From Nemertoderma westbladi (Eukaryota > Animalia > Xenacoelomorpha), in NCBI GenBank assembly GCA_032718475.1, contig JAUCBJ010007028.1:167186-231185 (forward strand): 64,000 bases of DNA, written 5' to 3'. The position numbers were made by a program, and so were the translations under genes. Under the pieces are notes generated by a model. It was not told the DNA's origin. It searched no databases and saw only the letters and a list, made by a program, of their open reading frames with translations. Positions 14,031 through 46,835 of this stretch are shown here, in pieces (position 1 is the stretch's first letter; each line of letters begins with the position of its first letter).

Positions 14031-15216
14031 TGTTTGCGCTTTTAGACCTTTAGAAGTTTAACCCGCTAATTTCAGATGTCTTTTAGTTTGTAAATCGACT
14101 TTAGCCTATGACAAGTATTTGATACACTACATTAGCCGAAGCCAGCCTATGCGCGACCATTCACCCGCTGGATATACCCGGGAGACTGGATTAGGATGCT
14201 TTGACCTTATTGCAGTGTAAGCCTACTGTATTATTCGATTGATCGTTAATATATAATCTCTGACAAACATTATTCACTTTCGGGAAATATTAACAGTTCC
14301 TTTAGGATGTGGCGCTCTAAATATGTAAACAGAGTTATGACTTATACTAAACACAATGGTATGGCTTATGATTCACGTATAAGGCGCATTGTTTAGAAGA
14401 TGCTTTGTTATCAGTCACACTCCTGCACACTACCGGTACCGCACAATACTGCACACTGATCTGCCGACCGTCACTGAATTTGATCATACATAAAGAGAAC
14501 AGCAATTGACTCATGTAGTGCCTATGAAATAGCATTAGATTCACTCCAAACCAATATAATTTAAGTCGCAATTGCTATATGTAACCAATCTCTAACCTTC
14601 AGTATATCAAGAAGATTGGGGTTTTATGGTTATTTATCGATATTCTCCAAATATAACAATATTCCATCAACTGATACAATTAATAACCGACAGTAAATAG
14701 CAGTAAAATAATGCGGTGTGTACTGGTACTGGTACCGATTGTTGAGGTATGGTATGATATGTTTGTTTGAGCCAGGTGCCAGGTGCCAGGATAACAGTTA
14801 TACGTTTCTATAATCAAAGCCTACTAATGTTTGGCTAAAGTCTGAAACTTAAAATAATTCCACAGCCGATGTTCTGGCATCAGGAAGTTGGAAAAAACCA
14901 ACACTGAACTCGCCCAGCACGATTTGCAGAGTTATCTCCACACATAAAATGAAAATCGCCCTGATTGGCTGCTAAGCCGAACAAAGAACCCATAGGGCCA
15001 ACGGCCGTTTCCATGTCAGCAAACCAGCTGGTAGATGTCGTAATCTGAGTCATCAAGGCTACACTGTGCTAAGAGGATTTTGGCGTATTGCGGCATTAGT
15101 GGCTTGTTATGTCCGCCAAAGTACACATACAGAAAGAACAGCTTTTATGTCCGCTAAAACACCTACACGGTACTTTGCGGGCAAAGGGACTGATTATATC
15201 CGCAAAAGCTTTTACA
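14031..15216 (-). repeat. 3' LTR of element A
   Basis: Minus strand TGTAAAAGCTTTTG...GCGCAAACA; preceded by PPT GGGAGCGG (15217-15224); inverted homologue of 55139-56349. Confidence 0.85.
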
Positions 15217-15294: not shown

Positions 15295-18200
15295 TTAGTC
15301 TTTCTTGCGTGGACGGCGTTTACGCAGTTTTTTAAAGCTAGCAAGAGTCTTTTTCTCTTTGGGGCGAGCCACTTTACTAGGAGGGCTATAACTCCTGGGT
15401 GAAGGGTGCAATATGATTGCATCAGAAGGTGTAGGATTATGGTCGGTGTATCTGCCGGTCGAAGTGCCTGGTTGGTCGACGTCAACTTCGGTGGAGAGAG
15501 GTCTAACGGCCTTTAGAGCGCGTTTCAGGACAGCAGCTCTTACGGGTCCTTGACGAGTGGTCTGAACGAGAGCCGTGGGCGGACCATAGGCAGTGAGAAA
15601 CTTCCTTGGTTTAATGGTTCTTTCCAACTCGCGTTCTCGGGCTCGATATTCGTAGGGCCGTCGATATACTTCCTGTAACTATGGATGCGAGTTGATAAAT
15701 AAATCGCCATATTCTGGATCTTGACGGATAAAATTGATCAAGTTATAGGAATGAATATCGTTAGGATTAACGCTCCTAAGAAATTTGCGTACAAATTTGG
15801 TTGAAATACATTCTCCGACACGCTTCATTAGTTCGTAACTCAGTGTGCGTGATTTCTGTTCGACGGACGCGAATAGATAAGGATGGAACACATAAACTCC
15901 TTCGTAGGCGCGTCCAGGGTAATAGCGATGGCGTGAATCACAATGTAAATCAGCGTTCGCTTCCCAAGCTCGAATGTAACGTAGTGTAATCAATTCATCT
16001 ACGCTTTCTAGATCGTGATTGAAAGGGCAATCAAAACTGGCATGTCCTTTTAGTTGACAATGGTGGCATTGAGTCATAAATTGGGGGCAGACTGCAAAAC
16101 TGTGCAAGTTATTGAGTCTGCAATATGCACAATAGATTTCCATTGCTGGTTGTTTGTGGAAATAGGAGCAGGGTACGTTTGAGTCCATGGGCGTAATATG
16201 GTCTCTCGATGCGCATAACCGACAACGTTGAATAACAGAGGAGTGTAAGTTCTGTATACAAATATCTTTGAAAATTGCAAATCCAGCGCTATCTAACTTC
16301 TCCGCAGCTGAGTCTCTTAGGCTGAGCTTGGTCAATGCGCGGTCCTTGAATTGGCTATCAACGTTACGGAACGGGGTTAAAAAACAGCTGAAACATTCGA
16401 AGCGGATGAATTTATTATGTTCATCTAGCTTAGAGAGTTTGGTTCCAAGTATTAATGGATGGGCGCGTATAGTACGACTGCACACATCAGCTAGCCAACC
16501 GGCAAGTGTGGTGTTTTCAAAGATTGTGTATATAGCCAGGGAAGGCCGAAGTGGAACACTCATGAAGCTATACACGACGCCAGGTGCGGGCAATGGTCCG
16601 TCAAAGTATAATCGAGAATAATGGTCTCCATATACTTGTTGATAGTTGATAGGATTTCCGACTTTGAAATTCCATCCGTATTCCTGAAAGGCAAGATGTC
16701 CGATGGAAGTTCGTTGTACTTTAGTGATGCTGCTGGACGTATTGGCATACATTGTGCGGAAGAAACCTCGGCCTTCTGCCCAGGGAGCAATCAGCTGAGT
16801 ATCCACGAAAGGATATTTTCGGATATTATTTTCGGATATTAAGGATTCTTTCGTTGAACAACATCTCGAGCACGGGCTGGGGTAACATCGATCCATTGAT
16901 ACCCATGGCCGGTTTGCGCTCGGTGTCTATGACATAACGCTGCGCGAGTTCGAATTGTCCATGTCGGAGATTCTTTTGTATTTTGGTGAGAGTCTCAAAA
17001 GAATAATCAATCACATCGGAACACGCTCGAGTAAACACGTGGGTAGAACCTGCTAATCCTCGTATATGTATCATGCGCGTAGTTCCTAATTTTCCGACCG
17101 GAACGCTACCTTCGTTATCGTAGGTGACAACTCCATACATTTCAATGACATTAAGAGTTTTGTTCCACTCTTTGGTGGCGTTCTCTAGGGTCATCCCTAC
17201 TGGATGCCACAAAGTGGCGCATTGGCTAGCGTCAGGGAGATCACTATACTTCAGGTACTGAGTGGTATACGTCTCCACATTTCCATATCTTTGTATTCTC
17301 TCTTCTTCGAATAATACGTCGAGATTCCAATGGACTAATCGAGTTTTAATAAATCCATTGAGATTATACGGAGGTGTTGTATCCTTCTCGATTCTAGAAA
17401 CGTTGTATGGTTTTCTGAAGGAGTTTACTTTCACTAACTGATCCAGATGTTTCTGCAATTGTTTGAGTTTGACAAGGTCGAGAGGATTTATTAGCGGTAG
17501 AAACCTTAGATTATGCGTCGGGTCTTCAGGTTTTACCATATAATATTGAGTCAGATTGACATAATAAGGGTGGTCTTTAATCCCATAAAACGAGTTCGGT
17601 AAAGGTCTAGCGTGTATGATGACATCGTGCACCATACAACGGACAAGATCCGCTCGATTGTCCGGAGGTTCAATGAGTATACCGTCAACATAAGCGGCCT
17701 CGATTGGCGGACACTGTAACATAGGAGCGTCAGCGATAAGATTTCGTGATCTTATGTTGATATCAACCGGTTGGGGTTGTATCGTCGCGAAGAGTTTGTC
17801 TCCGAAATGGGGAACCATCGAGGGATGAAGGACGGTTTTAGAGTAGAGATCCGTCATAAGGATTTGAGCTTCGGGTTGGGCTAAAGTGGCTTCTTCTCTC
17901 TCATCCATTTCAGTGTGTTTCTCCTTGAGTTGGTTTTCCTCAACTTGTCGCTGTAGGCGTTCATCTAAAAACTCTTGTAGAGAATACGTGCGTCCAAGCT
18001 CGATGTCTTCCTCGAGGTTTTGGATTTCTCGATCAAACTGTGGCAAGGCCAACTCCTTCACCGATTGGACTTGTTGCTGTAATTTACGTTTCTCTAAACA
18101 ATCTTGCATTCCTTTTCCAATCTTCTGCCGAATAGCGTCTAACGCGTTTCTTATAACGCTCTCCTCGACTTCAGTGGTGGGTTGCATTGGGGTTAAACCT

Positions 18201-18483
18201 GGACGATTGTAAGGATTAAACGGTGATATTAGATGCCCGCGTCCCAATCCGGCTAGGTAGAATGGGCGAATATCTAACGAACCCACTACCGGGGTGCCAC
18301 CGGTTAATTGTTCGGGTAACACTAAATCTTTGAACAGTGAATATAGTTCGGGAGGATCCGTGATACTGTTAGGATCAAGAGTTTGAGGTCTCACTGGGGA
18401 ATGAGGAGGCCTGACAAAGTATTCCGGAACTCTGATCATGGGTTTATTTAGTGATCGTTTGAGGCGAGCGATCGTAGGTGATA
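15295..18483 (-). pseudogene. Element A ORF3, central and C-terminal part: DEDD/EXD-like 3'-5' exonuclease, three CCHC knuckles, basic tail
   Basis: ORFs 16826-18439, 15679-16896 and 15295-15627; VTYDNEG, IHIR..G.THVF, LPQPVLEML, PFVDTQL; CRLC..RDH...C, CAYC...H...C, CHHC..KGH...C; colinear with B ORF3. Confidence 0.75.
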
Positions 18484-18701
18484 TATTATATTATATAATT
18501 ATAGACTTAAAATTATAGCACAAATAAATTTCCCGACGTAATCATAAGTCCTTAAAAGAATGTGAAAATATCGGACTAAGCAAAATAATAATTACAAATT
18601 CAAATTCACTACACAAGTAAGAAAATAAATTTATTTTATTTTACAGGAAGAAACATTTGTTAGAGTAATTGTATTACTAAAATTAATAGAAGACGTAGTA
18701 A

Positions 18702-21690
18702 TCAATTGTACACAGTTAGTGTATCGTAGACCCTTTTTGCTAGAGTTCGATAATCCGAATCGTGTTCCATGATTCCATGCAAATCGCTACGTTCGCCGTC
18801 AATATGTAGATGTTCTGTTAATTTACAATGGAACAAAACATGTTTCTCATCTTGCACGTCGCCTGAACCACAACAACAGGTTCGTTGTTTCCGATCAATT
18901 CTACTCCACCTCCCTGTTTCGACGCGCAAGCGGTGAGCCGAAACTCTGAATCGCGTTAAGGCGAGACGATGCTCCTCGAATAGACTTTTGTTTAGATTGA
19001 GGTTGTAACAACTGAACGGTGTAAGCGTTGGGTTGATCTCCAGGTAGGTTCGTAGCTTTGTGTGCAACGGCGCCAGCTGACAAATTCGCTGCTGACGAGC
19101 AACGAAATCCTCAGTAATGTAGTTTCTATTAGAGCCGATTAAACGATTGACTGCGCGAACCATAGGAGAGTTTATTCTCGACCCAGCGCTGAACGCAATG
19201 TAAAATGGATCTGTGACATCCCATGAACCCATTTTCTTCAGTAACCATACTCGCTGTTTCTCATGAATCATGGCAGACAAACTGGGAAATCCTGATTCGA
19301 TGAGACAAGCATCATTATTTGTTTGTGTGCGAACTCCTAATAGCGACTTGATAACGCGTATGTATTGTACTTCAAGTGGTTTATAAGACGAACAAATCCA
19401 GGTTTCGCAACCATAGTACAGCGATGCAAATAGAGCGGCGTTGCATACCATCCGTTTAATGCAGAAAGGCATATTGCGATTAGCAATAATGAAAGCATAA
19501 AACTTATTGACATGTTTTTGGTTAGACTCGTATTGTAGCTTCAGCGTACTGGACATTTTACCGTCACCAGAAATATGGTTACCCAGATAAACGTACTCGG
19601 TACATGGCTTGATTACAACACCAGATGGTAAAACAAAAGTTGATTTATCGTAGTCATTTCCATTGATTACCATTAGTTTTGTTTTCTTGACGTTAATTGA
19701 CATACCGGACCAATTACAAAAATCAAACAAAATGAGCGCCTTCTTAATGATACCATCACGTGTAGTTGATAGTAAGACAGCGTCATCCATTAAGAGGAAG
19801 ATGTGTAGAGCACCAAGAAAACCATCATTGGAGCATAGATCACTTAACATTTGTACCAGGCGATTCATAAACAAAATGAATAATATGCAGCTGGAGGGTG
19901 CGCCTTGGCGAACTCCAAGCGTCGCAACAATAACGACAGCGTTAATGAACATAACTGACACTTTATATAAAATCGCTATGGCCATTATCATTAAACGTCC
20001 ACATCCTAAGTCTCGGAGAACTTCCAAAAGTCTCTTTCTTGACACTTTATCGTATGCCTTCTGAAAGTCAACGTATAGAATAAACAGTTTGCATTTACTA
20101 TGTTTTGAAATATCAATCAAGAGTCTGAGGGCGAATATTTGCTCTTGGCAATCACGACCTTCCTGAGCTCCTGCCTGACATCGATCCAGTTTTGCCCATT
20201 TTGATAAACGTTTTCGAATAATTTCATCAAACACCTTTGCTATCGTGTCCATGATGGCGATACCCCGGTAATTATCCGTTACAGACTTATGGCCGCGCTT
20301 GAACAGGATGACGAGTTTAGAACCACACCAACGCAATGGTATACGTATACATGAGTTGTTGAAGACTAAGTTGAACAACGTAACCAATAAGAGAATGAAC
20401 GTACCACCGATAGTAGCTATTTTCAGAAGTGTTGGCGGAGCCCCAATATAAGATTTATTAGATTTCAATTTACAGACGGCATCTTCCACTTCTTCTTGAC
20501 TAATGGGGTTGTCCAGTTCAGGCACGATGGGTATATTTGAAATGTCTATTAAGACATCGGCGACGTCATTCCTCTCTGGATTCAGTAAATTAGTAAAGTG
20601 GGTAGCAAACACATCATCTGATGGAAATCCCGAATGATCTGTCTCCAATGTACCTTTCCATGAGATCATTTGCCAGAGCGATTTTGGATCTTGCGATTTA
20701 GCGATCTCCATCCAATGTTTGTAGATCGTTATATTGTTACCGTCTTGGATATTCATTATGTTTGTAGATACCAACTTCGGTAAACGGCTGACTTTCTCGG
20801 TCTGAGAAAGTAGCCAATATAACTGATCGTCGAAGACTTGTGGGTCTGTAATGTCGGAGAATCGTGCAGCGTTTTTATCAATGAAATCTACAACTTTTCT
20901 AGTGTCTAAGTTTGTGTTGCGAATTTTACAACATTTCGGAGGTGGGTTCGAGTATACCGATTTACCAAGATCTGATGCTCTTTCCAGAAGAATCGCTCCA
21001 CTAATTTCACACTGTAGCTCAACTGAGACTTCCAGGGGTGAGTGATCAGACGGGAAGCTGAGATTCTGGTTGTTGTTGAATGATGTGACAGTAATTGAGT
21101 TTTGGTTACTAACAAAACAATAATCAATCTGTGAGATCCATCTTTCTTTTTTTCGGAATGTGTAGTTATAAGAAAAGTCGCCCAACGGACCCAAAAGTTT
21201 ACAGCCAGTATCTTTTATTATAGCGTTCAGCGTCTTTCCGTTCTTGTTAACTTTATTAACAACATGTGCGTTGAAGTCTCCAATAAACAAAAAGGAATCA
21301 CTATCTTCTTTTAAATAGCCCTGAATAACACCAAATGTTTCCGTTTTGAAGTACAGTGAGTCTGATGGAGCTATATAACAACCAATAAAACAGACATTCG
21401 GATATTGTTTAAATTTAACAGCCATAATGCCTTCAATATTGATCGATATTTTTGAGACATCGCGGTATAACGAGTTGCGGATACACATAGCAGTTCCACC
21501 TCGACCGGGGGTGGATTTATCGGGAATGGAAAGTACTTTAAAACCGGGTAGCGACAGCTGAAGTGCAGTCTTGATTTCATACAGGAAAACTAAGTCGAAA
21601 TTTTGAAAATAGTTTATGAGCCAGTTTAAACGGAGTTTGTCTCGAACATCACAGATATTAAATGAACAAATTGACAGATGATTACGCGGG
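18702..21690 (-). CDS. LINE ORF2: APE endonuclease, reverse transcriptase and C-terminal Cys/His motif (one frameshift near the 5' end)
   Basis: GDFNA, IDY, SDH; NYRGI, VDFQKAYD, GVRQG, LMDD; RVETGR..R.C..DEKHVLFHC; 928 aa open from 21488. Confidence 0.93.
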
Positions 21691-21695
21691 CCTCC

Positions 21696-22240
21696 CTATT
21701 TAAAGTAAGTGGGCATATATCGATCTACAATGACATTATTTCGTAGTATTACGCCAGCTTTAGTGTCATATTTAATCGGTACGCCTACATTCTCGGGGTT
21801 GTTTTTGAGTTTTCTCTCTTCCTGTTGAAGTCGTTGAATTTCGCGTCTCGTAGCAGGATGTACGTCTTTTTTAACATAAATATCTTTCAGATCTTTCTTG
21901 TTGTTGTCCTTTAAATGTTGACAATTACTAAGAACTTTATCTCGACTCTTCTTGTCTTTAGTGTTTATCATGATCGGGCGAGAATAAGGTTTACCATTTG
22001 TGTAATTACCTGGTTTCCACTCACCGATGCGTTCCGCGGTAAACTCAATCTCATCACATTTAATTTCTTTGAAAAGCATTTCGACTTTATCACTAACCGA
22101 GCCGGGGAGCACCTCATGATTCTCATCTTCAGGAACTCCTAAGATAACAAGCTTTGCATAACGTTTCTCTTGGTCGATTGCTTCCATAAAGATTTGTTGT
22201 TGTCGCAAAGTGTTGTGAACGGTACGTAATTCGTTGTTCA
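21696..22240 (-). CDS. LINE ORF1 C-terminal part (coiled coil plus RRM-like)
   Basis: LVILGVPE, RIG, RPI.I and IYVKKD motifs typical of LINE ORF1; ends just before ORF2. Confidence 0.75.
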
Positions 22241-22244
22241 GATA

Positions 22245-22983
22245 ACATCGATACATCGATACATCGAACAGATTTTGCTCAAAACTCCCGTAAGTATAGC
22301 AAGTAAAATTGTGTTTAGCGCAACGTCTCTGCGGATGTTTATGTCTTTCCGTTTGTTGGTTGGGTCTAGGGCATTCATCACAATAATACCAAAGACGCAC
22401 GTCCTGTAGAGGAAACGTGGGTGATCGTTCTCCAGTTTTACAATATTCCTCCATCTGTTCAAAGCTATCCGGGACAACAGGTAGTGGACAATTGGCGGTG
22501 AGATACATCATAGTGAAATAGAGCCGTTTGAGTTCTACCATGGGGTCATGATGTATACCTTGAGGATATCGAGTTTCTAGATTCTGTTGACTGGCAATAT
22601 TGAGATAGGTTTCTCTCAAGAATTCTAGATAATCGTTGAAGTCGCTGCATTTATCCGGTTCTTCAACGTCTTCTCTTTCAAGTCGGTTCCGAATAGAATT
22701 CTCGTGTTCTATTCTCGGTTTATCGTTACGACTCCGCTGGGTATGATATTTAAATAAAACCATTTCCCTTTTGGTGTCTACATCGTCCATATCGTGTAAA
22801 TCGATAGGATGGCCAGTAGTTAAGAAGTCCATATATGACCATATATGTACCATTATGATGCGTATAGCGAGCGGTGAATTTTCTATAGTCCAATTCACGC
22901 ATAAGTTGCTCCTGGAACATTGGCGGTTTGATATAACGACCATCGTCCTCCGTAGTAGTTGGATCAGCTTTGCCGCGTATCAA
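22245..22983 (-). pseudogene. Element A ORF3 N-terminal part (CxxC..CxxH finger)
   Basis: ELKRLYFTMMYL..PLPVVPDSFE and YCDEC..RCAKHNF align with B 33528-34265 EFARLYHMNMYL..PLPAVRDQFD and YKCGEC..RCPAHQF. Confidence 0.8.
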
Positions 22984-23849
22984 GCTATCAACAAACGCTT
23001 AAAGGTAGAGTATATCGCTCCCTGATACCGAGATCATCTTCTATCAACTCAGTCATATCTGCTATATGAGTTTATTAATATTATAATAAGTTTGTATTTA
23101 GGCTAGCGGGCGTCGCCGCCTACCCCTCTCTGCCCCCGGACAGTGCAAGATCTTCAGCACCGATGTACCGTCGTCGCTGTGTTTTCGCCAACATGTAGCT
23201 ACACAACGACAATGATAACCGGCACAAGTCACTCCACTGTCCGTCCCAAAGGCTTAGATTCACTTCAGGTTCTTACGGTAGAGTTAGGGCTACTTTCACA
23301 ATTGCGACTCGCTACTGTAAACACACTTGAGTAGTAACATTCGCCTATAAATGCACAAATTCTACACAACTGTCACCAATTGTACACATACGGGCCATTT
23401 GTCCGTTAGTCAGTGCCTTCCAGAATGCCACGTTATTATTATGTATCCTTGGATACTAACAGTGTGCTATTTATTCCCTATGCTATTCAATGGGGCAAAC
23501 TTTCTATTGTTCTTTTAACTCACTTCTAATTCTAGCGTGGTTGTTGCTATGGTGACATTATGGAAAGCTAGTAGTAGAATTAGGGTAATTCTCATGCATA
23601 CAGATCTGGGATGCTATTTAATAGTAATTCTTTAATTGTCAATATCCTTTGGAGATCTTTGGAGATGTAATGGCCCTGTAATTGTCCCACAAAATTACTG
23701 ATTACTTTACTGAGTACCATGAGTAAGGCACTAAGAGTAGAGTAAGTATACTTAGTAGTATGCGTGCTTACTGACTGCCAGACTGCTTGACGCCACTTGG
23801 ACGGAAATTGGCAGCTAATCGCCACACGCGTTTGCTTAGTTGATCTTAG

Positions 23850-26800
23850 ATGGCAGCTTGTTGTGGCTGCAACGGGAAGACTGGTCGGTGCAGGAAGTGC
23901 GTCTGCGCGAAAGCACATAGAGACTGTAGTATCAGCTGCGCCGCGAGGAAGAACGGGAATTGTGAAAACGTCGGTACGTCGTTAGTTCAGCCGTCATCTT
24001 CCCAGCCACTGCCGGACCGGGGCTGTGCTGTTCAGTTAACGCGGACGTTCTTTTCTCAGCCATTAGATACATGTTCTCCGTCGGCAGATGAAACCTGGTT
24101 GGACAATGATGGAACGTTATTATCTCTCTCATCTTCATCTGTTGGCGTTAAGTCTGGGGCAATTCCTAGTCACGCTGGTGCTGGTCCCGAGCTGTCTGGT
24201 GCCTGTACTGGTCAGTCTGGTGTTGGCCCATGTTTGTCTGGGATGTCTACCGCGTCCTCGCCTGGACCCACGATGTCTACTGCGTCCCCGCCTGGACCCA
24301 CTACGTCTACCGCGCCCCCGCCTGGACCCACGATGTCTACCGCGTCCCCGCCTGGACCCACAATGTCTACCGCGTTCCCGCCTGGACCCACGATGTCTAC
24401 CGCGTCCCCGCCTGGACCCACGATGTCTACCGCGTCCCCGCCAGGACCCACGATGTCTACCGCGTCCCCTCCTGGACCCACGATGTCTACCGCGTCCCCG
24501 TCTGGACCTACACTGGCTTTAGTGGGTTGGTGTAATGGTAGATTCCCTGTTCACCAGTTAGATACCTCAATAAGACACGTATACGAAAATATTGTACATT
24601 GGAGGGCTAACTTGTTCCTGGTCCCCCCAGGTGCTATAGGTAGAGAACTGGTAAGCGAAATGTCGAGAATAGTGGGTCTAGCAACTATGGATAACCCACT
24701 ACGAAATGTTGCCCTATCGGCGTTGATGATACTGCCGGCGCTGCTCCTGCAGAAACCCAGCCGGACGTCTACAACGCCCACTCACAGGAGCGTGCTGGTG
24801 CGGAGGCTGGCGAGTTGGAAGAGGGCTGAGTTCCACGAACTGCTGGTCGAGGCTAGGGTTATCCAGTCTCATCGCCCAAAACGGCCGCGTCCGGAGTCTC
24901 AGAACGTCGCGCTCCAGAAAGCTTTTGTCCGCCATATGCTGACAGGGAACATCTCGGCAGCGACGAGGTGCCTGGGTCAGAAGATACGTTCACTGACAAA
25001 GATGGAGAGACAAAGGTGGTACGAGATGTGCTGCTAGATAAGCACCCACCCGCCAAACCGGCAGACGAGTCAATTCTGTTGGATGAGTTCGAGGGAGCAC
25101 CCGAGCACCACCCGGTAGTGTTTGAACAGCTGAATGGGCCATTAATCTTGACCAGCTTGTTAAGGATGAAGGGAAACGCCGCAGGTCCCTCTGGTATGGA
25201 TGTGCAGGGATGGAAACACCTTCTGACGAAGTTCCGCACTCAGTCCAACGAGTTATGCGATCAGTTAGCGCAGTTGGGCAGCGTAATGTCGCAGTCTCTC
25301 GTACCATCCGGTTCCCTGTCAGCTCTATTGTCTGCTCGACTCATCGCGTTGGACAAGAATCCAGGCGTCCGGCCCATCGGGATCGGAGAGGTTCTACGGC
25401 GGGTTATTGGGAAGGCGGCGATCCGGTGTATTCGCGAGGATCTCGAAGCTGTCGGCGGGTCCGTGCAGCTATGCCTTGGACAGAAGTCAGGGATCGAGTT
25501 CGCTGTCCATAGCCTTAACGACGCCTTTGACCGTGATGACTGTGATGGTGTTCTCCAAGTTGATGCCACTAACGCGTTTAACGCCCTCAACCGCCAGGGG
25601 GCGCTTCATAATATCCGCGTGGTGTGTCCCGGACTCCACACAATTGTATCAAATTGTTATAGCGAGCCGGCGCGGCTTTTTGTGGGTGGGGAAACCTTAC
25701 TGTCAGAGGAGGGAACGACTCAAGGGGACCCCGTAGCGATGGCCATGTATGGGTGTGGGGGAATGCCTTTGGTGAACGAGTTGGAACAGGGGTGCACCAC
25801 GGAGCAGCGGTGGTTCGCGGATGACGGGAACGCAGCGGGGAGTCTAACCGAACTCAGAAAGTTCTTCGACATCATCGCAGCGCGGGGGCCGCATTATGGG
25901 TATTACCCCACCAAGTACTGCCTCACGGTGAAGTCGGACAGGTTACTGGAGGCGGAGGATTTGTTCGCCGGCACCAACATTGCAATTAATATCGTTGGAA
26001 GTAAACTTCTCGGTGGCGTCATTGGCACTGAGGAGTTCCGTCGGCAGTTCCTTTTAGAGAAGGTCGCAGAGTTCGCAGCCGAGGTCGATCGGCTAGCAGA
26101 TATAGCCGCGGTGGATCCCCACTGCGCCTACGTGGGACTAGCGTTCGGGCTGGCCTGCTGGTGGCGGTACATAGCGCGGGTCGTACCGGGGGCGACGGAG
26201 CAGTTCGGGAAGCTTGAGGAGTCTGTAGGGCGGTTTCTCTGTCGCCTCACCGACCGGGCAGTTATTCTGACGGAGGAGCGAGAGTTGTTGTCGCTGCCGG
26301 TTCGCGACGGGGGGCTGAATGTCCCGGTCCCTCGGGATCTCGAGTCTCAATACCAGAACTCCCGCCGAGTCTGCGAACCGTTCGTAGGGGCCACCGCAGA
26401 TACGATGTCGGAAGTTCGGGAAGAGCAGATCGACATCATAAAGACGCTCAAAATAGTGACAGCAGCTGCAAACAAAGAAAACAAGGAAGAAGTGTGCAGT
26501 AAGCTGCCACAGAATCAACAGCAACTGTGTGATCTAGTGGGAGAGAAAGGAGCTTCAGCCTGGCTAAACTGTAAACCTATGACCTTACAGGATACTCACC
26601 TCGATAAGGAAGGGTTCCATGATTCCCTGTGCCTCCGCTACGGGTGGACGCCGCAAAATTTACCGTCTCGTTGTGCCTGTGGGGTGCGATTTACTTCGTC
26701 CCACGTGCTGTCGTGCCCCACCGGAGGGTTCCCCTACATACGGCACAACGAGATTCGCGATTTCGTCGCCGATACCCTGACGGAAGTGGCACACAATGTC

Positions 26801-27482
26801 GGGGTGGAACCGCTTCTGCAGCCACTATCGGGCGAGACGTTTAGCCATCGGTCGACATCGACGGACCAGCAGGCGAGGCTGGATGTGTCGGTGAGCGGAT
26901 TCTGGGGAAACCGTTTCCGGAAAACGTTCATCGACGTGTCTGTCTTCAACCCGCTGGCGGACACCAACGCCACGATGTCCCTTCCGGCATCCCACCTACA
27001 CCATGAGTCTCGCAAGAGGCTCAAATACGAAGAGCGGTTGAGGGAGGTGGAGCACGCCAGCTTCACTCCCCTTATATTCTCTGCGTTTGGTGGAGCTTCA
27101 CCGTCAGCCACACAGTTTATCAAGCGTCTCGCGTTGAAACTGGCTGACAAACGCGAGGTCCGCTATTCAGAGTGTGTTGTGTGGGTTCGCAGGAGGTTGA
27201 GTTTCGCCCTTTTGCGGTCAGCCCTCCTGTGCCTTCGCGGCTGTCGATCAGCTAAGCGGCGTCCGGTTCGGTGCGACGTGGAGTCGATCATCCACAGCAA
27301 TGCCGACTGCAACCCGGCGTAGGCGACTGTGGATAACAACCCTCCAAGTTTGGAGGACAGTCAGACAGTATCATATATTAACTGTAGTATTAATTTAACA
27401 GTGTATATTTGTCTGGTTGTTGGTGGTGGTTGCTATGCGATCTGATGTGCATCAGCTGTTTTTACAAGCTTTAATAATAAAT
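23850..27482 (+). mobile_element. CRE-like RLE-type non-LTR retrotransposon; single ORF broken by one frameshift near 25000
   Basis: Cys-rich N-terminus; RT motifs VRPIGIGE, DATNAFN, GTTQGDP, FADD; C-terminal CACG..H..C, RHN, RLDV..FIDV..E..K..KY restriction-like endonuclease; AATAATAAA end. 5' boundary not determined. Confidence 0.88.
24242..24510 (+). repeat. 30-bp coding tandem repeat x9 (TMSTASPPGP)
   Basis: CGATGTCTACCGCGTCCCCGCCTGGACCCA repeated in frame. Confidence 0.95.
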
Positions 27483-28381
27483 ATACGGCTATAGTCAATA
27501 TCCTCTTTATACATGATTTTATGAATTTTATCGGCTATTGACTATATATTGGAGATTCTCGAACTCTAATACACTTAATAGGGTGAATCTCCGCTCCCGT
27601 GATCTATTATTTAATGGAATTTTGGGGATATTATAAATTGTATAAAATGACAATTTATCAAATTCATTAAAAGAGATGAATTTAAATTTACTCCCATAAA
27701 TTTTATTATTTGATGTTGGAATAGACACAATTTTATTCCAGAACTTGTCTGGGGACGTTAACCACTGACTCTAAATTATTGTCTTTCAAGTATATCGGTG
27801 GGTACTGCAATATCTTAATCGACTAGAATTACAGATGGTCAAAAGGTTTAACAGGTTTATTTTGCGTTTTTCGCTACTGTTAAAGGGACATCACGCTACT
27901 ATATGTATTATTTAATATACGGTATGAGAGCAATATCGCACGAAGCAATGTCAGTGTGAAGAGGCAAGTTGTTTCCAAGGTCTACCCAGAGCTTGGTTTA
28001 GCCGAGACACGAGGATCTGAACTTTGCATTCCTAATACTCTGCCTACCAATAATACTTAAATATAGTAGGAGCTTTATTGTACTTTAATAAGTACGGACA
28101 TTTCATCTTACTGTAGTCTCGCATTTATAATATAATACGGACAGTAAGGAAAGAGAAAAAGAATTATTTCTCGCCGTCGCACTAAATATATAATATATAA
28201 GTAATTAAGTAATAAACACTAATATATATTGCACTAATCTACTAAACAATCGCTAAAATAACATAAATAAAATTAAAGAAAAACGATTATAATAAATTTA
28301 CATAATAATACATACCGGTACATAAATATAAAATAATAAAATAGATGAAATAATATAGTCACACACCCACTCCTGACGTTA

Positions 28382-28765
28382 TTACGTTGGGGAGCCCCTA
28401 GATGTTGGTTGGATTAGGGAAGTGGTCGTGGGAAGAGTATCTTGCTTACCATAGTTTCCGGAGAGTTCTCTGTCTCTTTCCAGTAAACATAAACGACCAA
28501 TTGGGCGGTTGAGCTGTTGCGTCTCGAAGACAATTCCCGGTTTCTTAAAGTTACGTCGCATGACAACGAGTTCTACCGATCGCACTAAACCATCATCTGA
28601 GATATGAGTCTTGATGATACGACCTGTCTGCCACCGCTTACGTGGAAGATCTAAATCCACAATAAGGTCCATGTCTCCGGCGCTGACGTTTTCTTGCTGC
28701 GCAAACCACTTTGTTCGAAGTTGTAGTGTGGGCAGATAATGTGTTTTCGAATTGGTCAGCAAAAC
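28382..28765 (-). pseudogene. Element A integrase C-terminus
   Basis: YLPTLQLRTKW, W..GRI...DGLVRSV, RPI..LC; continues the 46836 sequence across the TSD. Confidence 0.9.
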
Positions 28766-28770
28766 GACGG

Positions 28771-30286
28771 TGATAAACAACCGCGACACCTATACTAACA
28801 GCAGAACTGTTGAACAGACAAATACCCGTATACTTCTCTGCCAACCTAATGAGCTCTCGCCTAACCAATAAGACACAAAGACTGCCCTACTGTTAAGTAA
28901 AGGGGATCAGGAGCATGCTATTACTAAATGTAGGGCTGCTAAATACAATACCGCTACTTACCGTTAGATGGCGCTAATCTGCCGTCCGCTAATATATTTT
29001 ACTAAATTTACACGGCTCCTGCAAAATCGCTTGTTCCTTTCTCTACCGATTGCTCGATAGAGAGCTAACTGTTCGAATCTATGAGCCACGCGGGAATAAC
29101 CAAAACAATAAACCCGAGTCGGCTCCCTAAGCTTACTTAAGACGAGTGCGAGAGGCTTTGCACTCAGAGTATTCTTACGCCTAATGTTATCACTATCGAA
29201 GCACGCTATTGCCTACGCCTTTTCTAATCGCGAATACTGGGGGTTCCCTAACGGAATGTATGAATGCGAGAATATTTAAATAATCAAAATGATACAGTAA
29301 TTTGTCTCTACGTGGATAATACCATTCTGGGTCTAAACTTGCCTGCAGCTGGCTTTAGGCCAGCAAATTACTAGTGTGTTGTGCATACTGAATAATGCGA
29401 TCTAGCTTATTGCCCACTAATGCAAATAACCGCTTAGCGTGAATAGTTTACAGTACCCTAATTATTACTTTAGCTATTCTCCGCTATGCTGCGTACTAAT
29501 TCTTAATTTTACTAATCAATTACAGTCACAAATATGTAACAGCGTACTAATTACTAAGAGTTCCAGAATCCGTAATTCTAATTTATTACACAACAGGTTT
29601 CGCTAGTAATAGCCTAAAATGCCGTATTACTTTGACCTAATCAGTGATTAATTGTTGTAACTAAGAAATACGTAACAGATAGCAAAAATGGATTGAGTTG
29701 GAAGGTGGTGGTGGAACTACAGCTCTACCGGCAAACCGCCAATTTATAGGTGATCCGAGTGGGGTGATGCAATAAGGGTGACGCAATCGCTCTCCTATTG
29801 GCTCTCCAGTCCGCGCTAGCATTAGACCAACCTGGAAGCAGTTAGTCCAATAAGAAGGCCGGATTGTAGCCCTATTGCTTCCCAAACCCTCAAATTATTA
29901 CCATATATGGTAATGGATCATGTCCCTGGCTGCGGAATGGTCAGGATAGCGTCCCTATATGCTAGCCCTATCGAAGCTAATAACAGCAAGCACATATCCA
30001 GGGTCCAACTGAACTCGCTAACCTGGAACTATCTACCTATATCTTAATACAAAATTACGTAGGTAGGGCTACATACTATACAAAATGGATGAATTCAAAA
30101 TATATGGGCGTTTCAATTTCCCTATCTAAATATCACTGCGCTATTATGCCTTATCTAAAATATTATACTGCACAACGGACTAATATTGCATACAGTATAA
30201 CGGACTAATATATTATACTGCATAATGGACCAATATATTATACTGTATAATGGCTAATAATGTGTACAGCGCCATATACCGTAACA
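28771..30286 (-). repeat. 3' LTR of B (1516 bp, lacks a 696-bp segment)
   Basis: Direct repeat of 44619-46830, roughly 98% identical by eye outside the gap. Confidence 0.95.
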
Positions 30287-30955
30287 CCGCTCCAAGGGAA
30301 ATCATACAATGTTTCCCTCCAATTGTAGAAGAGTATAAGGTGATGTATACAAACAAAATAAATTTCTTCCAAATAATCTAAATACTTGATACTATAAATC
30401 CTATTAGTTACAAAATATTGCCATAGATATTGCATAATGAATTGCATACAAATTAAATTTTACAAATATTAACTCTCTCACTGTTTAACGATTATTACAT
30501 ACAAATTAAGTTTACAAAATATTGTTTCTCGTTCGTACTACATAATGATTACTACATACAAGATCGAATATAAAAAATTTTGCTAGGGCAAGTGAAAGGA
30601 GTAAGCCAAACCCGCAGGTTTGTCTCCCAATCACCTCCTTTGCCTCTCTCATAATATAAATTCAAAACAGCTCAACTAGTGTATATGAGTCTAGTCGGAT
30701 ATTTCTAGAATGCTACAATATACATCAGAGCAACAATGATGTATATATCTAGAGTCTGTCGCCCTGTGCTATAATGTATTATCGACCCGCTCCTGGGTTC
30801 TTTGGGCTCGCTACCCTCTTTCGCCCTCTTCCCAGATACACCAGTCTACCCCCTGTAGACTCTGTTGACGGCGTCCATTAGGCGTCACTCCCCGGAACCG
30901 GTGACGATGTTCCCTGATCCTTGACAGACTCCCGGCTGGTACTTCTACCTCGGCC

Positions 30956-33900
30956 TCATCCCAATCGAGCTCCTGTGGTCGCTTCCGCCAACTCCTCCTT
31001 CTGCAGTTGCACTCGCGCTTTTTTCGACGCCCCCTGCGCCTTGCGCTGCAACCTCTGCGCTTCTATAATAGAGTGATAGTGGTCGTCCTTGACTTGACGC
31101 TTGTCTTGGACCTCTCCTCCTGGTTCTTTCCGCAAGCCTTGAGCTCCAGCGGTCGTCGCTGTGGTTGCTGCGATCCTCTGTTCCTGTATCCTCTCAGCGG
31201 TCAATGACCCCACTGGCACATAAGTCAACAAGAATTCGTTGCGGTATTGAATAGCCGCCATCCTCCAATTGCCTCTCGCGCGTACCACCTTTCTAGTCTC
31301 CGAAAATACACCCTTTGTGATTCGATCGCAAATAGCAACGAAGTTCCAAGTGTACTTCTTATCCATATTTAGTTGTCTAAAGTATTCCCGGACTACGATA
31401 ACACCAGTGTTTTGTGGAAGGTCTTGAGCAGTTAGGATGAGCTCCTGATATTGTGGTAACGACTGTAGATATGGCTCGTACGCAACATGTGATGGGTCTA
31501 CCGCCCAAAATCCATATCCCGCTTTAAATGGTAACCAACGCATCTGCGCTTGAATATGGTAGTCGGCCACACTCTCCCACTTATCTAACATCTCCCGAAG
31601 TAGGTTAGCGCTATGGTTTTGGAAGGAATCATCTCGCAGCTGACATCTCGCGCTACGATGTCCCTTTACTCCACAATATCCGCATTGAGAAATGAAGACG
31701 GTGCACGTGTGAAAAGAATGGTCGGTCTCATTACACCAACGGCAGACCTTATGCGCCGCCTCTACTACTGCGTCGCACGACTTTTGATTGTGCCTTGTGC
31801 TGCCGCACAACTTACACCTACGCGCTTGTGGAAACCAGGCCCTCTCGTATATGAGGTCTCCAATCGGTTTCGCACTTCCTTCTTTCCCAATGTCTAATAC
31901 GATGTCGTCCTCTCCGGTCAGCGGAACAAAGTAAACATCCTCGCCCTTGTCCTCTATCTCCAATATTTCCTCCCGCGTTCGTTTCGGATATGTCTTCTCC
32001 ACCGGAAGATCTACTCCGAACACCTCTACTAACGTCTCCGGCCAACCCTCCTTAACGGGTCTATCAGCCTCCGAGTGGAAGGGAGTACCAAACCCGCGGG
32101 TTTGATTCCCAAACCACTTCTCCAAAGCCTCTGGCGTCGGATACTCCATCGACGGTCGGTCTCCCAAATCTCCGATGTTCTGTCGATATACTCCTTCGAA
32201 TATCGCTAATCCTCTCCTAACCATCAACGTATTCTCTAACGATTGGTTGAAGAACGGGGTTAAGAAACGCTTCATCACGTCGGATTGGATTCCCCCTTTC
32301 GAGCGAACGTATTGATCTCCTCCGAATACCAATGGATGACGCTTCAAAACTCGCGCAACAATATCCGCTAATAAACAAGTTACCATGTTCGACTCAAGCA
32401 CCAAATAATATTGTAGTGACGCACGGGGTGGCACGCAAATGTTCCAATACACTAACGCTTGCCGCTTGAAGTGGGATTTGAACTCCGCTCCCGGCGGCGT
32501 GTTGTATTCGACATACGCCTCCTCGTATTTCTTCTGCGTCTTTATCTTAAAGTCCCAATTATACAACAAATATGCTATAAAGCCCATACCAGTCTTGGCA
32601 GAGTTGGGATACTCCCTATAAATTCCCATATCCTGTGCCCATAGCAACAATAGCATGGTGTCGACAAATGGTCTCGGCAATCTATCTTCCAAGTCAGTCA
32701 TGGCGTTGAAGTCACTCTCCAAATCGCTCTGGACTCCCGATCCCACCTTGACGTAATCTTGGTTGAGAATAGCCTCTCTAACCTTCTTGGGTAACGCTCC
32801 GCTCCGTGCATACCTCCTCGCCTGCATACCTCCAAAATCTGCTCCCTAGGATCCTTCCCCCTCCGATATTGTGTCGTTATGATCGGCTCCGGTCTCTCTC
32901 GATCCGCCCTCACGCGCATAAACACATGAGTCACACCATTGGCCGCACGAATTTGAATGCACTTGCTAGTCAAACATTCCTGATGGGACCCTCCTTCATT
33001 GTCATAGAACATCACTCTCCAATCCTGCAGTGATTCCTCCGTTTTCCTCCACTGACGCTGAATCTCGTCTGATGGGGTCCACATGCGCTCGATAGCCTTG
33101 TGGTCATCATATCGGGTGTAAGAACGCTTCCTCCTCAGCCACGTCTGGTCTACCTCCTTGTCGTCTGGGAATGTAGCCACCACAACCCATACTTTGATGT
33201 ACTTGTCCAACCATCCAAACAGTTTGCTCTCCTTCCCTGGAGCTCCAATCTTATCCAATGTGTCATAATCCGTGATCTGCATTGGGACATCACGCAAGAA
33301 CTTCGCACATAAAACTTCCCGTAGACAGTCAACGTTCCAATGATCCGCCATTCTTACCATCGGCAAGAATTTTATCGCTTCTCGCGACTCCGGATGATCT
33401 ACCAATATCGCAGGTTCGTTGCTGTCGGAATAATACACCGGTCGGGGTTGAGATACGACCTGTGGAACAAATCCGGTCACTCTCCTCGTCTCCTCTTGAT
33501 GTCTATCCGCGGTCTTTTTATACTCCGCTATCCGCTTCTCAAATAACTCTTTCGCCTTCGCCGCTCGCTCCTCCTGCGCAACGCGTCTATGTCGTCCTGA
33601 TGCTCAGGCATGAGGCTTCTCACTCGGTGAGGCGAAGTAAACGCAGTCCAGGGACTCGAGAGCTCCAAACCCGCGGGTTTGGTACCTGAGTCCCGTGCCG
33701 CTTCACGCCGCGCCTCTAGATCCTTATAGGATCGGTACAGCGAAATGGCCGCTGCCGTCTCTATCAAACTGGGTGTCGAATAGGGTTTAATCTCCGTATA
33801 CGGATCTAATGTCGTAACGGTCGGCGTAATGGGTCTTGGAGGTCGCTTTCCGCTGAAGTCGATACTGATCATCGGGTTGCTCATCGGGTAACCTCCCTCG

Positions 33901-34425
33901 TTATATCTAAGGAACTGGTGAGCTGGACATCGCGTTAATATCGGTTCTGGATGTTGCTTGTCTAGTCGGTCGGGAATCGCCACGTCTTGTTTATTCATGC
34001 ATTCACCGCATTTGTAGAACAGCTTGTACATGCTGAAGATTTTCGGCGTCTCCTGATCCTCGCCTCGAGTCCTCCGGTACAGATGCATTCCGTCGAACTG
34101 ATCTCGGACTGCAGGTAGCGGCTCTTCGTGTCGTAAATACATATTCATATGGTACAGCCGTGCGAATTCCTCGTCCGGGTCTGCACTAATGCACTGTACG
34201 GTCCCCCAACGCTCTAATTCTTTCCCTCCGTAATTCCTTATCATAAGTGGGTTTGTATTTCCCATTTAGCTCCATCACCGACCGCCCATGGTAGTAAACG
34301 TTCGAATCTTTACATCCCGGTCGCGCAAATGGTAGCTCCGCCTCCTCTCTGGCAGTAAATCCTCTGCGCGGTTGCACTCTAATATCCTTCTCCATTATGC
34401 CCGCGTATATACATATATATCCCAA
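30956..34425 (-). pseudogene. Element B ORF3: Zn finger, DEDD/EXD-like exonuclease, three CCHC knuckles (frameshifted)
   Basis: ORFs 34186-34425, 33528-34265, 32698-33480 and 30956-32827; FYDNEG, CIQIR, LPKKVREAIL..YVKVGSGVQSDL, PFVDT, GMGFIAY, W..P..SLQYYLVLE; CKLCGSTRHNQKSC, CRWCNETDHSFHTC, CGYCGVKGHRSARC. Confidence 0.8.
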
Positions 34426-35111: not shown

Positions 35112-38100
35112 CTAATTCTGTTTTGAGGCAGGAGACAAATTATAATCTCCCGTCTCGATGCGTGTCTCCTCTAATAACACGATATCCTGGACCGGTCGGT
35201 CCAAGGTGTGTAAACCATTAGTTTTACACTTCTTTGGGTGCGGACACTTGCACCTAATTTTCACCGTGACTGTGCGCATTATATTTTGCACGTCTGGGTG
35301 TGTATGCAAGATCACACCTGTCTCCCAATACTTTTTCTTGACAATCGGCTCGGTTATCAATACGTAATCTCCCCTTTGGAGACTCTGAACCGTTTTGTAC
35401 CACTTTGTTCTGGTGGATATGGTGGGAAGATAGTATTCCCGCCAATATTCCCAGAATGTGTACGCCACAAATTGAGTCATTTTCCAGCTTTTACGACTAT
35501 ATAGGTCGGCACTAATGGGTTCTGATGCCGGCACAAGAAACGCTGGATTCTGCATTAGCAAATGATTCGGCGTTAATGCAACACCGTCCGGTAACATAGC
35601 TATCGGCCTCGAGTTTAGTGTATGCTCGATTTCGATGAAAGCTGTGACCAGTTTGTCGTCGGTAAGTTGTTTGTTCACAGGCAACGTTTTTGCAATGGCC
35701 TGCTTTACAGAGCGAACCAAACGCTCCCAACTTCCTCCTCTCTAAGGACTTTCTGGAGTATTAAATCTCCACTCTACTCTTTGCGGCAAAAGTGCTGCAG
35801 AAATTTCTTTATTCTGCGCCGCCCTATGAGCCGCGTTTAACTCGCTGTTCCCCCCGACAAAGTTTGTACCCTTATCGGAGTAGAACGCCTTTACTAGTCC
35901 TCTCCTGGCCATAAATCTCTTTAAGGCCAGGAGCAGAGATTTGGTCGACATGTCTGCCACACGCTCAATGTGTATGGCTCTACTACCCATGCATGTCAGT
36001 AGCAGACCCCATCGCTTGTGGGTCAGCCGTCCACTATTTGCCTCAATCGGACCAAAACAATCCACCCCCGTGTTCGTAAAGGGTGGGTCATATGCCTGCA
36101 CTCTCACTTCCGGGAGTTCAGCCATCTCCTGTTCCAATACTCTGGCGTTCACTCTCTTGCAAACCAGACAGGCGTCGTACATAGTGCCGACTGCCCTGCT
36201 TGGCTGCAATAGAATGAATCGCTGCCTCGCTGCCGACAAACAGTGTAACTTTCCCGCATGATGCAACCTCTTGTGTATATCCCATAGAATCGCTCTTTGC
36301 AATTCTATTGGGTGACTAGGGATTATCACTGGGAACCGAAACTGTGAGTTTATGTCAACAGTCTGGATTCTCGATCTATGACAAATCAAACCCTTATGGA
36401 TTAATGGACTCCATTTTCTAAGGGGTTTATAGAGAACTGGTCGTTGAGCCGATAATAGATGGAATTCTTTGGGGAAGGCACATATTTTATAATGCTTCAA
36501 ATGCTTTAATTCCGCTTGATCAATCTCATCCTCTGTCAGAGGTTGTTTCAATTTCTGAATTCTCTCACTATTAGTGCTCGTTTGTTCTCCCAAATGTTTC
36601 GAATGTTTCAAACAAAGGTACAAAATGTATCAGCTTAACCACGCAGTTCTTTTACAAATTGTCAGCCAAGAGGCAGACAAATTTAGTAATTTGTCATAAA
36701 TACTGCATGACTCTAAAGCCAGCGACGGTTGTCCGCTAACTAATGGAAGTTTCGAATCCAAACCCACAGGTTTGGAAACCAAAGGATCCATTATGTCGGT
36801 CATTTTCTGTCCGTCACTTACCAACTGTGACCCTGGTGTACTCTGTAAGGGTGGTTTTATGTCATAACTTACCCTTCCGGACCTAGTAGTCACATAAGTC
36901 TGTTGGTCTGACAGGTCTCCGGGCCGCTCCAATGACTCTTCAGGCCGCTCCAATGACTCTTCAGGCCGCTCCAATGACTTAAGTTTGGCTTTAGACTTCG
37001 ACTTAGAGACTTTATCCACCTTGACTTCTGCATCTTCAGGCATCGGATTGGTCACTATCTTTAGTTGCTTTGGCCAATGTTCCTGTGTCCTCGTTAGAAA
37101 ATCAGGTCCATGCAACCAAAACTCCTGCGACTCTTCCTGACAGAATTCCGCCGGCATTGCACCTCTCGAAGTTATGTTGGCCGGGTTTAACACTCCCGGA
37201 CAATGTCTCCATTATTCCTTCGTCAAAAAGTCGACGATCTGAGCGCGTCTGTTGGCCACAAATGTCTTTAGTGCAATATTGTCAGCCGCAATGTATACTA
37301 ACACTAAGGATGCGTCCGTCCAATAGAATAAGGTCAATGTCGTGTCTAACTCCTCAGTTATCTGCTTACTTACCTCGACTGAAACCACAGCCGCCTGTAA
37401 CTCTGCACGAGGGACAGTCATGTATTTGACCAGCATTGTCTTTGATCTAGAAGTCACAAAGGCCGTCTCAAATTTATCCTGACTCACCTCTCGGCGAAGG
37501 TAGGCTACCATACCAAAGCCGGTGTCACTTGCGTCACTAAATAGGTGGAGTTTGAGATCAGCTGGGAATAGCAGCTGATTCGGAAAGTAGGAACGGGGTA
37601 CATCTATATTTTTCAATAGATGTAACTCGGCTTCCCACTCCCGCCACTGCTTTGCATGTATAGGAGATATTGGTTCGTCCCACTCTATGTCGGACAACCA
37701 AATTTTCCTCATGCACGCTCGTGCCTGTAATATTACCGGACTGATAAAGTTCATCGGGTCAAATAGTCTACTTAATGTCGATAAGCAGATTCTCTTAGTC
37801 AAAATTTTGTCTGGGCTACTGGGCTCAAATCTAACTCTTACCTGGAACTTATCTGAGTTCGGATTCCAAGCGAGTCCCAGTACTCGCGCCATGGGAATTG
37901 GTTCTACCCCCAATTCTATGTCTCCGCTCCCGCGATCCTTCACCGGGAACGACTCTAATAGGGCCTCCGAGTTCGTAGTGAACTTGGTCAGAGGAAATCC
38001 CCCTGTAGCCAAGCACTCCTGTAGGCCGTGAGCCACTTCTATGGCTTGTTCCGCCGTGTCCTTGGACACCAATCCGTCGTCCATATAGAAGTTTCTCAAG

Positions 38101-42700: not shown

Positions 42701-43526
42701 AACTTCCCTCTGATAACGGCGCTCTTCCTTATCTTGGATCTCTTCCCGCTCCACTAAGTCTCTTAACTCTACGTCACTCACCTGAGTCGCCTGCAATTGT
42801 GATGCCCATAGCAGCCAGTTCTCCGTCCTAACTCGCCGAAGTCGCTCTGATAACGCGCGGTGCTCCAACAGGGCTGCCAAAACCCTATCATAAACCCTCG
42901 TCGCCACGTCGCTCGACTGAGACTCTACTGCCTTCTTCGCTAGGACTGCAAGCTCCTCCGTCTGCTTGAATAACGCTGAGTTATATCCTCTTCTAATCTC
43001 TACTAACTCTACCCTCCCGATGTTCGCTGAATCAGCTAACATCTTCCTTACCTTGTCCATCGTCCGAGTTATATGTCCAGCGTGCGTGTGAAGTTTCTTC
43101 TTTATCGCAATGTCTAGTTCTCTCTCGCTTACCTGACTTACACTTGGTGGACTTGAAGGATTATTTCGGGAACTACGGGTACTCCTTACAGCCGTTGGGA
43201 CCACGGCACTTACCATACCCACAGGTCTGGAAACCGGGCTCGGGCTCTCGCTTCTGCTACACTACCCTCCCTTCACTCACCTCTGTCCGGGCTGCTGTGC
43301 GGTCCTTCCTTACGGTAGTGGTAGGGGATCCTAATAATATTACTTGAGGTTGTTGTTCTTCCTCACTGGTCACTGTCTCGTCCTCCTGTTTGCTTACGTC
43401 AGCGTCGCTCGCTGCGTCGTCATAGTCGGCATTGTCGTCAACAGTAATATTTACGCTATCGTCAGTCGGCGGTCCAGCCGCCGTCTCATAGCTGTCCTCT
43501 AGTGCCTCCTTGTCTGAGGCACTCAT
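39761..43526 (-). pseudogene. Element B gag (long E/R coiled coil, capsid-like domain, BEL triple Cys/His array)
   Basis: ORFs 43257-43526, 42563-43222, 41585-42475 and part of 39231-41588; KF.G...W..F, EKFNYL; CQFC..H....C, CWACL..GH....C, CMECG..HH.LLH. Confidence 0.88.
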
Positions 43527-46830: not shown

Positions 46831-46835
46831 GACGG

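Follow-up and report, generated by a model that had tools for sequence, protein, structure and literature searches.

ORF3, a selected accessory gene of BEL/Pao retrotransposons with a predicted exonuclease fold and three CCHC knuckles

What kind of gene lies between the integrase and the 3′ long terminal repeat (LTR) of two BEL/Pao retrotransposons, A and B, of Nemertoderma westbladi? Both elements are located on the minus strand of a 64,000-nt stretch (GCA_032718475.1, contig JAUCBJ010007028.1, 167,186–231,185), which is called the window here and to whose whole length the coordinates of A and B refer. Each has in this slot a third open reading frame (ORF3) of ~1,150–1,300 codons, broken in both copies. 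The profile issued by the international virus taxonomy committee (ICTV) gives BEL/Pao elements gag, pol, and an optional env only, in a genome of 4–10 kb (PMC8742986). B, in contrast, is 18 kb long, and instead of the normally env-like third gene the family of A and B has an ORF3 with a predicted nuclease fold and, in A and B, without any hydrophobic segment (maximal 19-residue hydropathy 1.47 over seven window pieces). A broad set of BEL/Pao retrotransposons carries this gene under selection, as an accessory one.

A first-pass annotation, made from the sequence, had assigned A and B to BEL/Pao, and Pfam bears this out: Peptidase_A17, DUF5641, and Integrase_H2C2 are present in both pols and DUF1759 in gag, which is the domain set of the group (gag with DUF1759; protease, reverse transcriptase (RT), RNase H, and integrase in this order; the Pao RNase H Peptidase_A17; the integrase tail DUF5641). 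A third gene is optional in the group, and its unusual nature here leaves the pol-based assignment intact. The annotation had also described the two ORF3s as colinear proteins without similarity of their DNA. All motifs that it listed were found in place on the minus strand, and tblastn of A pieces on the window gave four colinear blocks in B, namely the N-terminal Cys block (E 1.6e-7, 42%), the YDNEG block (E 2.8e-6, 30%), the PFVDT–FLTPF block (E 1e-16, 30%), and the knuckle block (E 1e-12, 25%), with the next-best non-self match at E 0.013, while blastn of A against B found nothing below E 0.18.

With the C-terminal piece of B as query, HMMER run over all 1.84 billion protein representatives yielded seven natural homologues (E up to 0.001). 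The knuckle domain is present in all seven with nearly invariant ligands (Pfam zf-CCHC on P0005, E 9e-4), and five have D-x-E, VGS/A..I..D, DT, G[LIMV]G, and Y-x3-D/E in this order, one of the others being cut N-terminally and one degenerate. P0002 has the triple-knuckle domain twice, together with a degenerate exonuclease. In the Protein Data Bank (PDB) the best match of the seven-sequence profile was to the Lin28 knuckles (E 3e-6), and it also matched Trypanosoma brucei RNase D (E 1e-4) and EXD2 (E 0.0045). In the AlphaFold2 (AF2) model of P0007 (mean pLDDT 52; 65–85 in the domain core), residues 15–279 were aligned to DnaQ-like structures: the exonuclease domain of Nibbler (Z 14.2, rmsd 3.3, 194 residues), RNase D (Z 13.5, rmsd 3.7, 181 residues), WRN (Z 13.2, rmsd 3.5, 177 residues), T. 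brucei RNase D (Z 12.2, rmsd 3.9, 202 residues), Rrp6 (Z 13.1), Exd1 (Z 12.8), and Egalitarian (Z 12.2). Foldseek matched the same model to Egalitarian, EXD2, NrnC, Exd1, and Rrp6 with E 8e-6 to 2e-4. Judging from this modelling and these profiles, the ORF3 family is predicted to combine a DnaQ-like (DEDDy) exonuclease fold with a three-knuckle domain, the latter being predicted to bind zinc and RNA. Word-indexed searches found no homologue with the C-terminal piece of B and P0007 alone with the profile. The search for related loci with P0005 or the RT/RNase H piece of B gave no match, and the knuckle motif gave none in viral contigs. The ESM Atlas placed the C-terminal part of B near PF01612 clusters (0.84), which is a lead only, and gave nothing useful for the part with ExoI.

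The fold may be assigned to A and B themselves by homology transfer, as a profile of 60 exonuclease domains matches the C-terminal piece of B with E 3e-12. In addition, a two-block matrix built from 31 homologues placed the ExoI pieces of A and B, which were not among the queries, at ranks 1 and 3 among 522 pieces of the window. Their D and E are in register with those of the homologues, and the score of A was reached in 1 of 300 shuffles. The four acids of B read D-E-D-E. Several details of the annotation need revision: KVG.G...D, which it had named among the motifs, is present in B only, while in A the ExoII block is missing at the lesion near 16835, where the segment from LP to PFVDT has ~20 residues as compared with 41 in B and a 13-nt tandem duplication marks the break; the last acid of ExoIII, given as D or E, is E in both; of the three CX2C..H..C knuckles, all three in B are exactly CX2CX4HX4C, while in A one is exact and two have longer spacing; and the likely start codon of A is at 23056, upstream of the proposed 22983. 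The N-terminal Cys block, read as a Zn finger in the annotation, has no match in the homologues, Pfam, or PDB, and the whole N-terminal 500–700 residues that include it are private to A and B, unmatched in any ORF3 locus.

ORF3 is not confined to A and B. Scanning for a DNA pattern of the knuckle motif common to the seven homologues found at least 120 metagenome loci and 12 genome loci; 40 loci of ≤663 nt were left out and 92 kept, of which 84 were informative and matched ORF3 profiles. Directly before ORF3 and in the same orientation, a BEL integrase lies upstream in 47 of these 84 listed loci (42 in the first pass and five by tblastn on 14 of the 42 remaining; the upstream queries were BEL and LINE only), and at most unlinked loci the contig ends within 1 kb upstream. 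All 13 long pols tested are BEL/Pao, with Peptidase_A17 and DUF5641 above the cut-off, and none of 15 ORF3 proteins matched a Pfam family at E 0.01. The proposed linkage of ORF3 to BEL pol is thereby supported, and where intron-containing host genes had been conceivable as homologues, the relatives were single-exon ORFs behind BEL pol. Six of the loci (L123, L124, L127, L128, L130, and L132) are BEL contigs binned with bacterial genomes; contamination of eukaryotic origin is the most likely reason. L124:3542–9538 (minus strand) is a BEL gag-pol with a deoxynucleoside kinase domain before RT (Pfam dNK, E 6e-46). The ORF3 at L132:250–3780 (plus strand) has an N-terminus that looks GDSL/SGNH-like by eye, without a Pfam match, followed by the exonuclease and knuckles; a rotifer element reportedly has GDSL/SGNH and exonuclease domains in a single ORF3.

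ORF3 is under purifying selection. In 39 of 40 pairs with >55% identity, dN/dS of the exonuclease domain was 0.04–0.56 (Nei–Gojobori type counts over pairs that are not independent; one pair was saturated), and in 15 pairs lacking the catalytic acids it was 0.04–0.44, which agrees with the selection claimed in the annotation and is not near 1. The values are probably upper bounds. The distances of exonuclease and pol are congruent (Mantel rho 0.81, n = 24, 0 of 2000 permutations), and A pairs with B as its sister on a long branch; the tree holds ORF3-bearing BEL rows only. Compared with pol, ORF3 has a lower dS, for which an overlapping gene was considered and rejected: the high GC3 (~0.8 in ORF3 against ~0.67, 0.64–0.73, in pol of the same elements) explains the difference, and no overlapping frame showed conservation. 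These data bear on a further explanation, in which ORF3 would be a passenger captured from the host, or else envelope-like. It does occupy the env slot, and rotifer ORF3s showed no clear departure from neutrality (PMC5408684). However, the ORFs have a single exon and follow BEL pol across dozens of divergent families, their dN/dS is well under 1, and they are congruent with pol, which largely refutes this explanation; no transmembrane-like segment was found in A or B, nor in 38 of 41 long homologues. We consider it highly improbable.

Is the selected property catalysis? The 60 exonuclease domains, with a median identity of 18%, comprise 26 with DEDD, two with DEDE, four without an aligned ExoII, 18 without the ExoI acids, and 10 cut or degraded. 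Those acid-less rows that have a pol, 11 in all, fall into one clade (SH-aLRT 100), with a single change on the tree, and two BEL ORF3s (L047:3341–6529 and L059:6880–9648) have the knuckle domain and no detectable exonuclease domain. Because a constrained clade lost the acids and these two loci lost the domain, catalysis by ORF3 is unlikely to be an obligate step of reverse transcription. The nuclease of the annotation is therefore upheld for the family as regards fold and motifs, and not for this clade and these two loci. This reminds us of Egalitarian, Exd1, and Maelstrom, and ORF3 could act chiefly as an RNA adaptor without catalysis, serving to localise or package the RNA of the element, any cutting being incidental. 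The domains without ExoI acids are yet under purifying selection, the top Foldseek matches are Egalitarian–BicD RNA complexes, and the putative catalytic residues of Egalitarian are dispensable for its RNA binding and function (PMC13186709). All four acids are nevertheless kept in 28 of 60 domains over very divergent lineages, their loss maps to the one clade, and Egalitarian is tied by Z with many active enzymes. An adaptor is quite unlikely as the main role.

The mode of expression leads to another explanation. In 12 of 42 linked loci, a single stop separates pol from an ORF3 that carries on in its frame, and this stop is TGA-C in 10 of the 12 (three with TGA CAA TT) as compared with 4 of the 30 other linked loci. 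Known readthrough signals are a C after the stop and CAR-YYA (PMC2194720), which the TGA-C contexts resemble, though kin share the trait. A fusion of this kind would be packaged along with Pol. ORF3 could then work in the virus-like particle, as a second nucleocapsid-like chaperone with an exonuclease that tidies the 3′ ends of primer or cDNA; the knuckles resemble those of nucleocapsids, and in A and B the sequence after the 5′ LTR has no TGG start of a primer-binding site. Against this, most acid-bearing members have a separate ORF3, the TGA-C context being concentrated in the acid-less clade (11 of 16 loci against 2 of 19 acid-bearing ones); the ORF3-bearing relatives L033 and L006 have ordinary TGGCGCC primer-binding sites; no gene of this kind is among those that the ICTV profile gives as needed (PMC8742986); and the stop context of Tca2 was insufficient for readthrough in yeast (PMC2194720). 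B has a 720-nt non-coding gap between pol and an ORF3 with its own ATG, and these features point to a separate message in this element. We regard a role within the particle as rather unlikely.

Because catalysis is kept in many lineages and dispensable in one, and because the gene is absent from the ICTV profile, we favour an accessory role of ORF3 on RNA 3′ ends, directed against host silencing or decay, tentatively and at somewhat less than an even chance. Hosts mark transposon RNA with 3′ tails. The ORF3 protein would grip single-stranded RNA and trim or shield its 3′ end, thereby protecting the element; its targets might be either small guide RNAs or the tails by which the element transcript is marked. 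In acid-bearing members, including the family of B with its D-E-D-E, the knuckles would pass RNA on to the active site in the manner of the trypanosome RNase D, while in the acid-less clade binding alone would suffice. The protein would be translated from a separate message in A and B, where ORF3 has its own ATG, and be made by stop readthrough, extending Gag-Pol, in the 12 in-frame relatives.

Several observations weigh against this accessory role or the fold on which it is built. A readthrough fusion to Gag-Pol suits a function inside the particle at least as well. The DnaQ-like fold claimed in the annotation is supported on the homologue P0007, the overall pLDDT of whose model is low, and not on the window's own proteins: the window pieces have no DEDD hit in Pfam and no exonuclease match among PDB sequences, and for the C-terminal piece of B, from which the ExoI strands are absent, the model was poor (pLDDT 47) and matched no fold. 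Local hidden Markov models missed the ExoI pieces of A and B, hhalign was weak on them (P 0.48), and the ExoI score of B is modest (8 of 300 shuffles). The ExoIII motif ends as Y-x3-E in A, B, P0007, and P0008, while D stands at that column in 37 of 60 homologues; among the 28 intact homologues the fourth acid is E in two only, and activity in the window families is uncertain. Moreover, the loci were chosen by the knuckle motif, so that knuckle retention is built in, and many belong to common accession series, with possibly few host species. Five loci (L008, L012, L032, L052, and L075) have at least 1.5 kb upstream without a BEL match, although in two of them the upstream frames resemble further ORF3 pieces.

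The copies of ORF3 in the window are dead remnants of apparently abundant families. In contigs from three DNA runs (two samples), both ORF3 regions were covered end to end with great summed depth, which suggests that the families of A and B are abundant in the host. In each of the three runs, 12–14 contigs depart from the window at 16835, and other copies diverge from it at the breaks of B at 33576 and 32795 and at the LINE edge of A at 18483; because the contigs depart at these points, the four lesions look private to the window copies. What disrupts the ORF3 of A is a change of frame close to the start, the inserted LINE, the lesion at 16835, and a late stop. Of the fixed differences between the window and other copies (from the 40 best-supported of ~390 and of ~710 rows), 15 of 37 were synonymous for A and 3 of 18 for B, which is near the expected 21–29%; they reflect decay of the copies and are no test of selection.

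Table 1. Features of elements A and B and of their ORF3s in the window.
Feature	Position	Strand	Remarks
ORF3 of B	30959..34395	(-)	~1,146 codons; three frame changes near 34250, 33576, and 32795
B N-terminal conserved block, C-x2-C-x21-C-x2-H, putative Zn site	33912..34160	(-)	36% identity to the A block
B ExoI (YDNEG) and next two strands	32920..33006	(-)	rank 3/522 pieces, 8/300 shuffles; in register with D-x-E of homologues
B ExoII (KVGSGVQSD)	32723..32749	(-)	aligned with the ExoII D of homologues
B ExoIII (W..P...QYYLVLE), final acid E	32393..32449	(-)	profile E 3e-12 across the C-terminal part of the domain
B three CX2CX4HX4C knuckles and WESVADYH block	31556..31816	(-)	best PDB matches of the homologue profile are Lin28 knuckles
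A ORF3, 5′ piece	22270..23056	(-)	likely ATG 23056; Cys block 22305–22526
LINE within A ORF3: ORF1 remnant, APE endonuclease and RT	18483..22270	(-)	Pfam RVT_1, Exo_endo_phos; 5′ edge approximate
A ORF3, 3′ part	15298..18482	(-)	ExoI 17033–17122; lesion ~16835; ExoIII 16516–16530; knuckles 16027–16224; late stop near 15680
gag-pol of B, BEL/Pao, broken	35115..43530	(-)	DUF1759, Peptidase_A17, Integrase_H2C2, DUF5641
3′ LTR of B	28771..30286	(-)	98–99% to 5′ LTR; 5-bp target duplication
5′ LTR of B	44619..46830	(-)	696 nt longer than the 3′ LTR of B
gag-pol of A as far as the B insertion point	46831..53780	(-)	Pfam
Integrase tail of A past the B insertion	28385..28770	(-)	DUF5641 E 5e-16
3′ LTR of A	14031..15216	(-)	TG...CA; purine tract GGGAGCGG before the LTR; 89% to inverted copy 55139–56349

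The elements are nested (Table 1). B (28771–46830) is inserted within the integrase of A and flanked by a 5-bp target duplication, and A reads, from its gag (53780), through pol, the integrase tail (28385–28770), and a non-LTR element (23850–27319), to ORF3 and the 3′ LTR. The annotation was right that a LINE splits the ORF3 of A; the second non-LTR element and the insertion of B are additions to it. This second element is on the plus strand and has a Cys-rich N-terminus and an RT (Pfam E 0.0013). While the 3′ LTR of A is clear, no target duplication is readable, and its partner LTR (55139–56349) is inverted, within an inverted duplication of the leader of A. At 53538–59693 the leader and the start of gag are duplicated in inverted form around this LTR, and the 5′ LTR of A may owe its orientation to an inversion or to a flip in the assembly.

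In BEL/Pao elements the 5′ LTR is followed by an 18-nt primer-binding site for a tRNA (PMC8742986). In A and B, the first 10–11 nt past the 5′ LTR (44609–44618 and 56350–56360) are complementary to a site within the LTR; this was reached in 2 and 3 of 2000 shuffles in a post hoc search, and the site of B is in the segment absent from its 3′ LTR. It may hint at tRNA-independent priming, provided that the sites are transcript starts. Tandem arrays with units of ~37 nt and ~43 nt are located at 250–1140 and 5874–7293.

As the annotation had stated, DEDDy ORF3s are present in LTR retrotransposons of bdelloid rotifers, Juno and Vesta, and in Athena/Terminon elements (PMC5408684, PMC6431247, PMC5718144). 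Like the ORF3 of BEL, the rotifer protein is an RNase D-like DEDDy exonuclease, the third ORF behind pol, without transmembrane segments, and its acid pattern is likewise changed (DEED, as compared with D-E-D-E in B). However, Juno and Vesta are not placed in BEL/Pao in the available portion of PMC5408684, and the comparison is by description; the same portion has no occurrence of CCHC, shows no purifying selection, and describes neither a pseudo-enzyme clade nor readthrough, all of which are seen in the BEL ORF3 family (readthrough as stop context only). In the literature searched we found no DEDD ORF3 in BEL/Pao; supplements, Repbase, GyDB, and subscription journals were outside its scope, and an annotation there is possible. 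The word exonuclease does not occur in the available portions of PMC3118150, PMC13524379, and PMC12241861, and PMC6338049 cites the domain in passing only. An ORF3 with an exonuclease fold thus appears to be undescribed for BEL/Pao, while DEDDy ORF3s were already known from rotifer LTR elements.

The T. brucei RNase D, TbRND, which reduces guide RNAs, has a zinc-finger domain at its C-terminus besides an Exo domain (PMC7797062). Like ORF3 it has a DEDDy exonuclease followed by a CCHC domain (PDB 7c42/7c45), and by this analogy it may be the closest working model for the mechanism, although it is a cellular guide-RNA-trimming enzyme and the likeness, of fold and knuckle profile, does not imply a common origin of the fusion. 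Nibbler/Mut-7, EXD2, WRN, Exd1, and Egalitarian share the DnaQ-like fold and the motif order, and Exd1 and Egalitarian parallel the acid-less clade; they are host genes, however, with ~14–18% identity, and because the Z values are tied, no single host donor can be named. The plant element SIRE1 has a third ORF past one in-frame pol stop, as in relatives of A and B and not in A or B themselves, but its cargo is env-like, while that of the BEL relatives has a nuclease fold (PMC2194720). The Dada DNA transposases carry a DEDDy exonuclease with all four acids, as do acid-bearing ORF3s; unlike ORF3, this domain sits in a DNA transposase and is proposed to process DNA ends (PMC3706591).

Dozens of divergent families thus have, linked to BEL pol, a long-conserved third gene, dark to Pfam, with a predicted enzyme fold, and its knuckle motif is a handle for finding a lineage that standard annotation has overlooked. 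The existence of intact enzyme-like, dead, and putative readthrough versions of ORF3 makes directly testable the question raised by the rotifer study, namely of what use a DEDDy exonuclease is to a retrotransposon. It is conceivable, if unlikely, that a deep BEL/Pao lineage has its own RNA 3′-end enzyme as a counter-defence against silencing by small RNAs or tailing, one branch of which became a dead RNA binder loaded into particles by Gag-Pol readthrough; if true, this would be a transposon-side parallel to the DEDD pseudo-nucleases of hosts.

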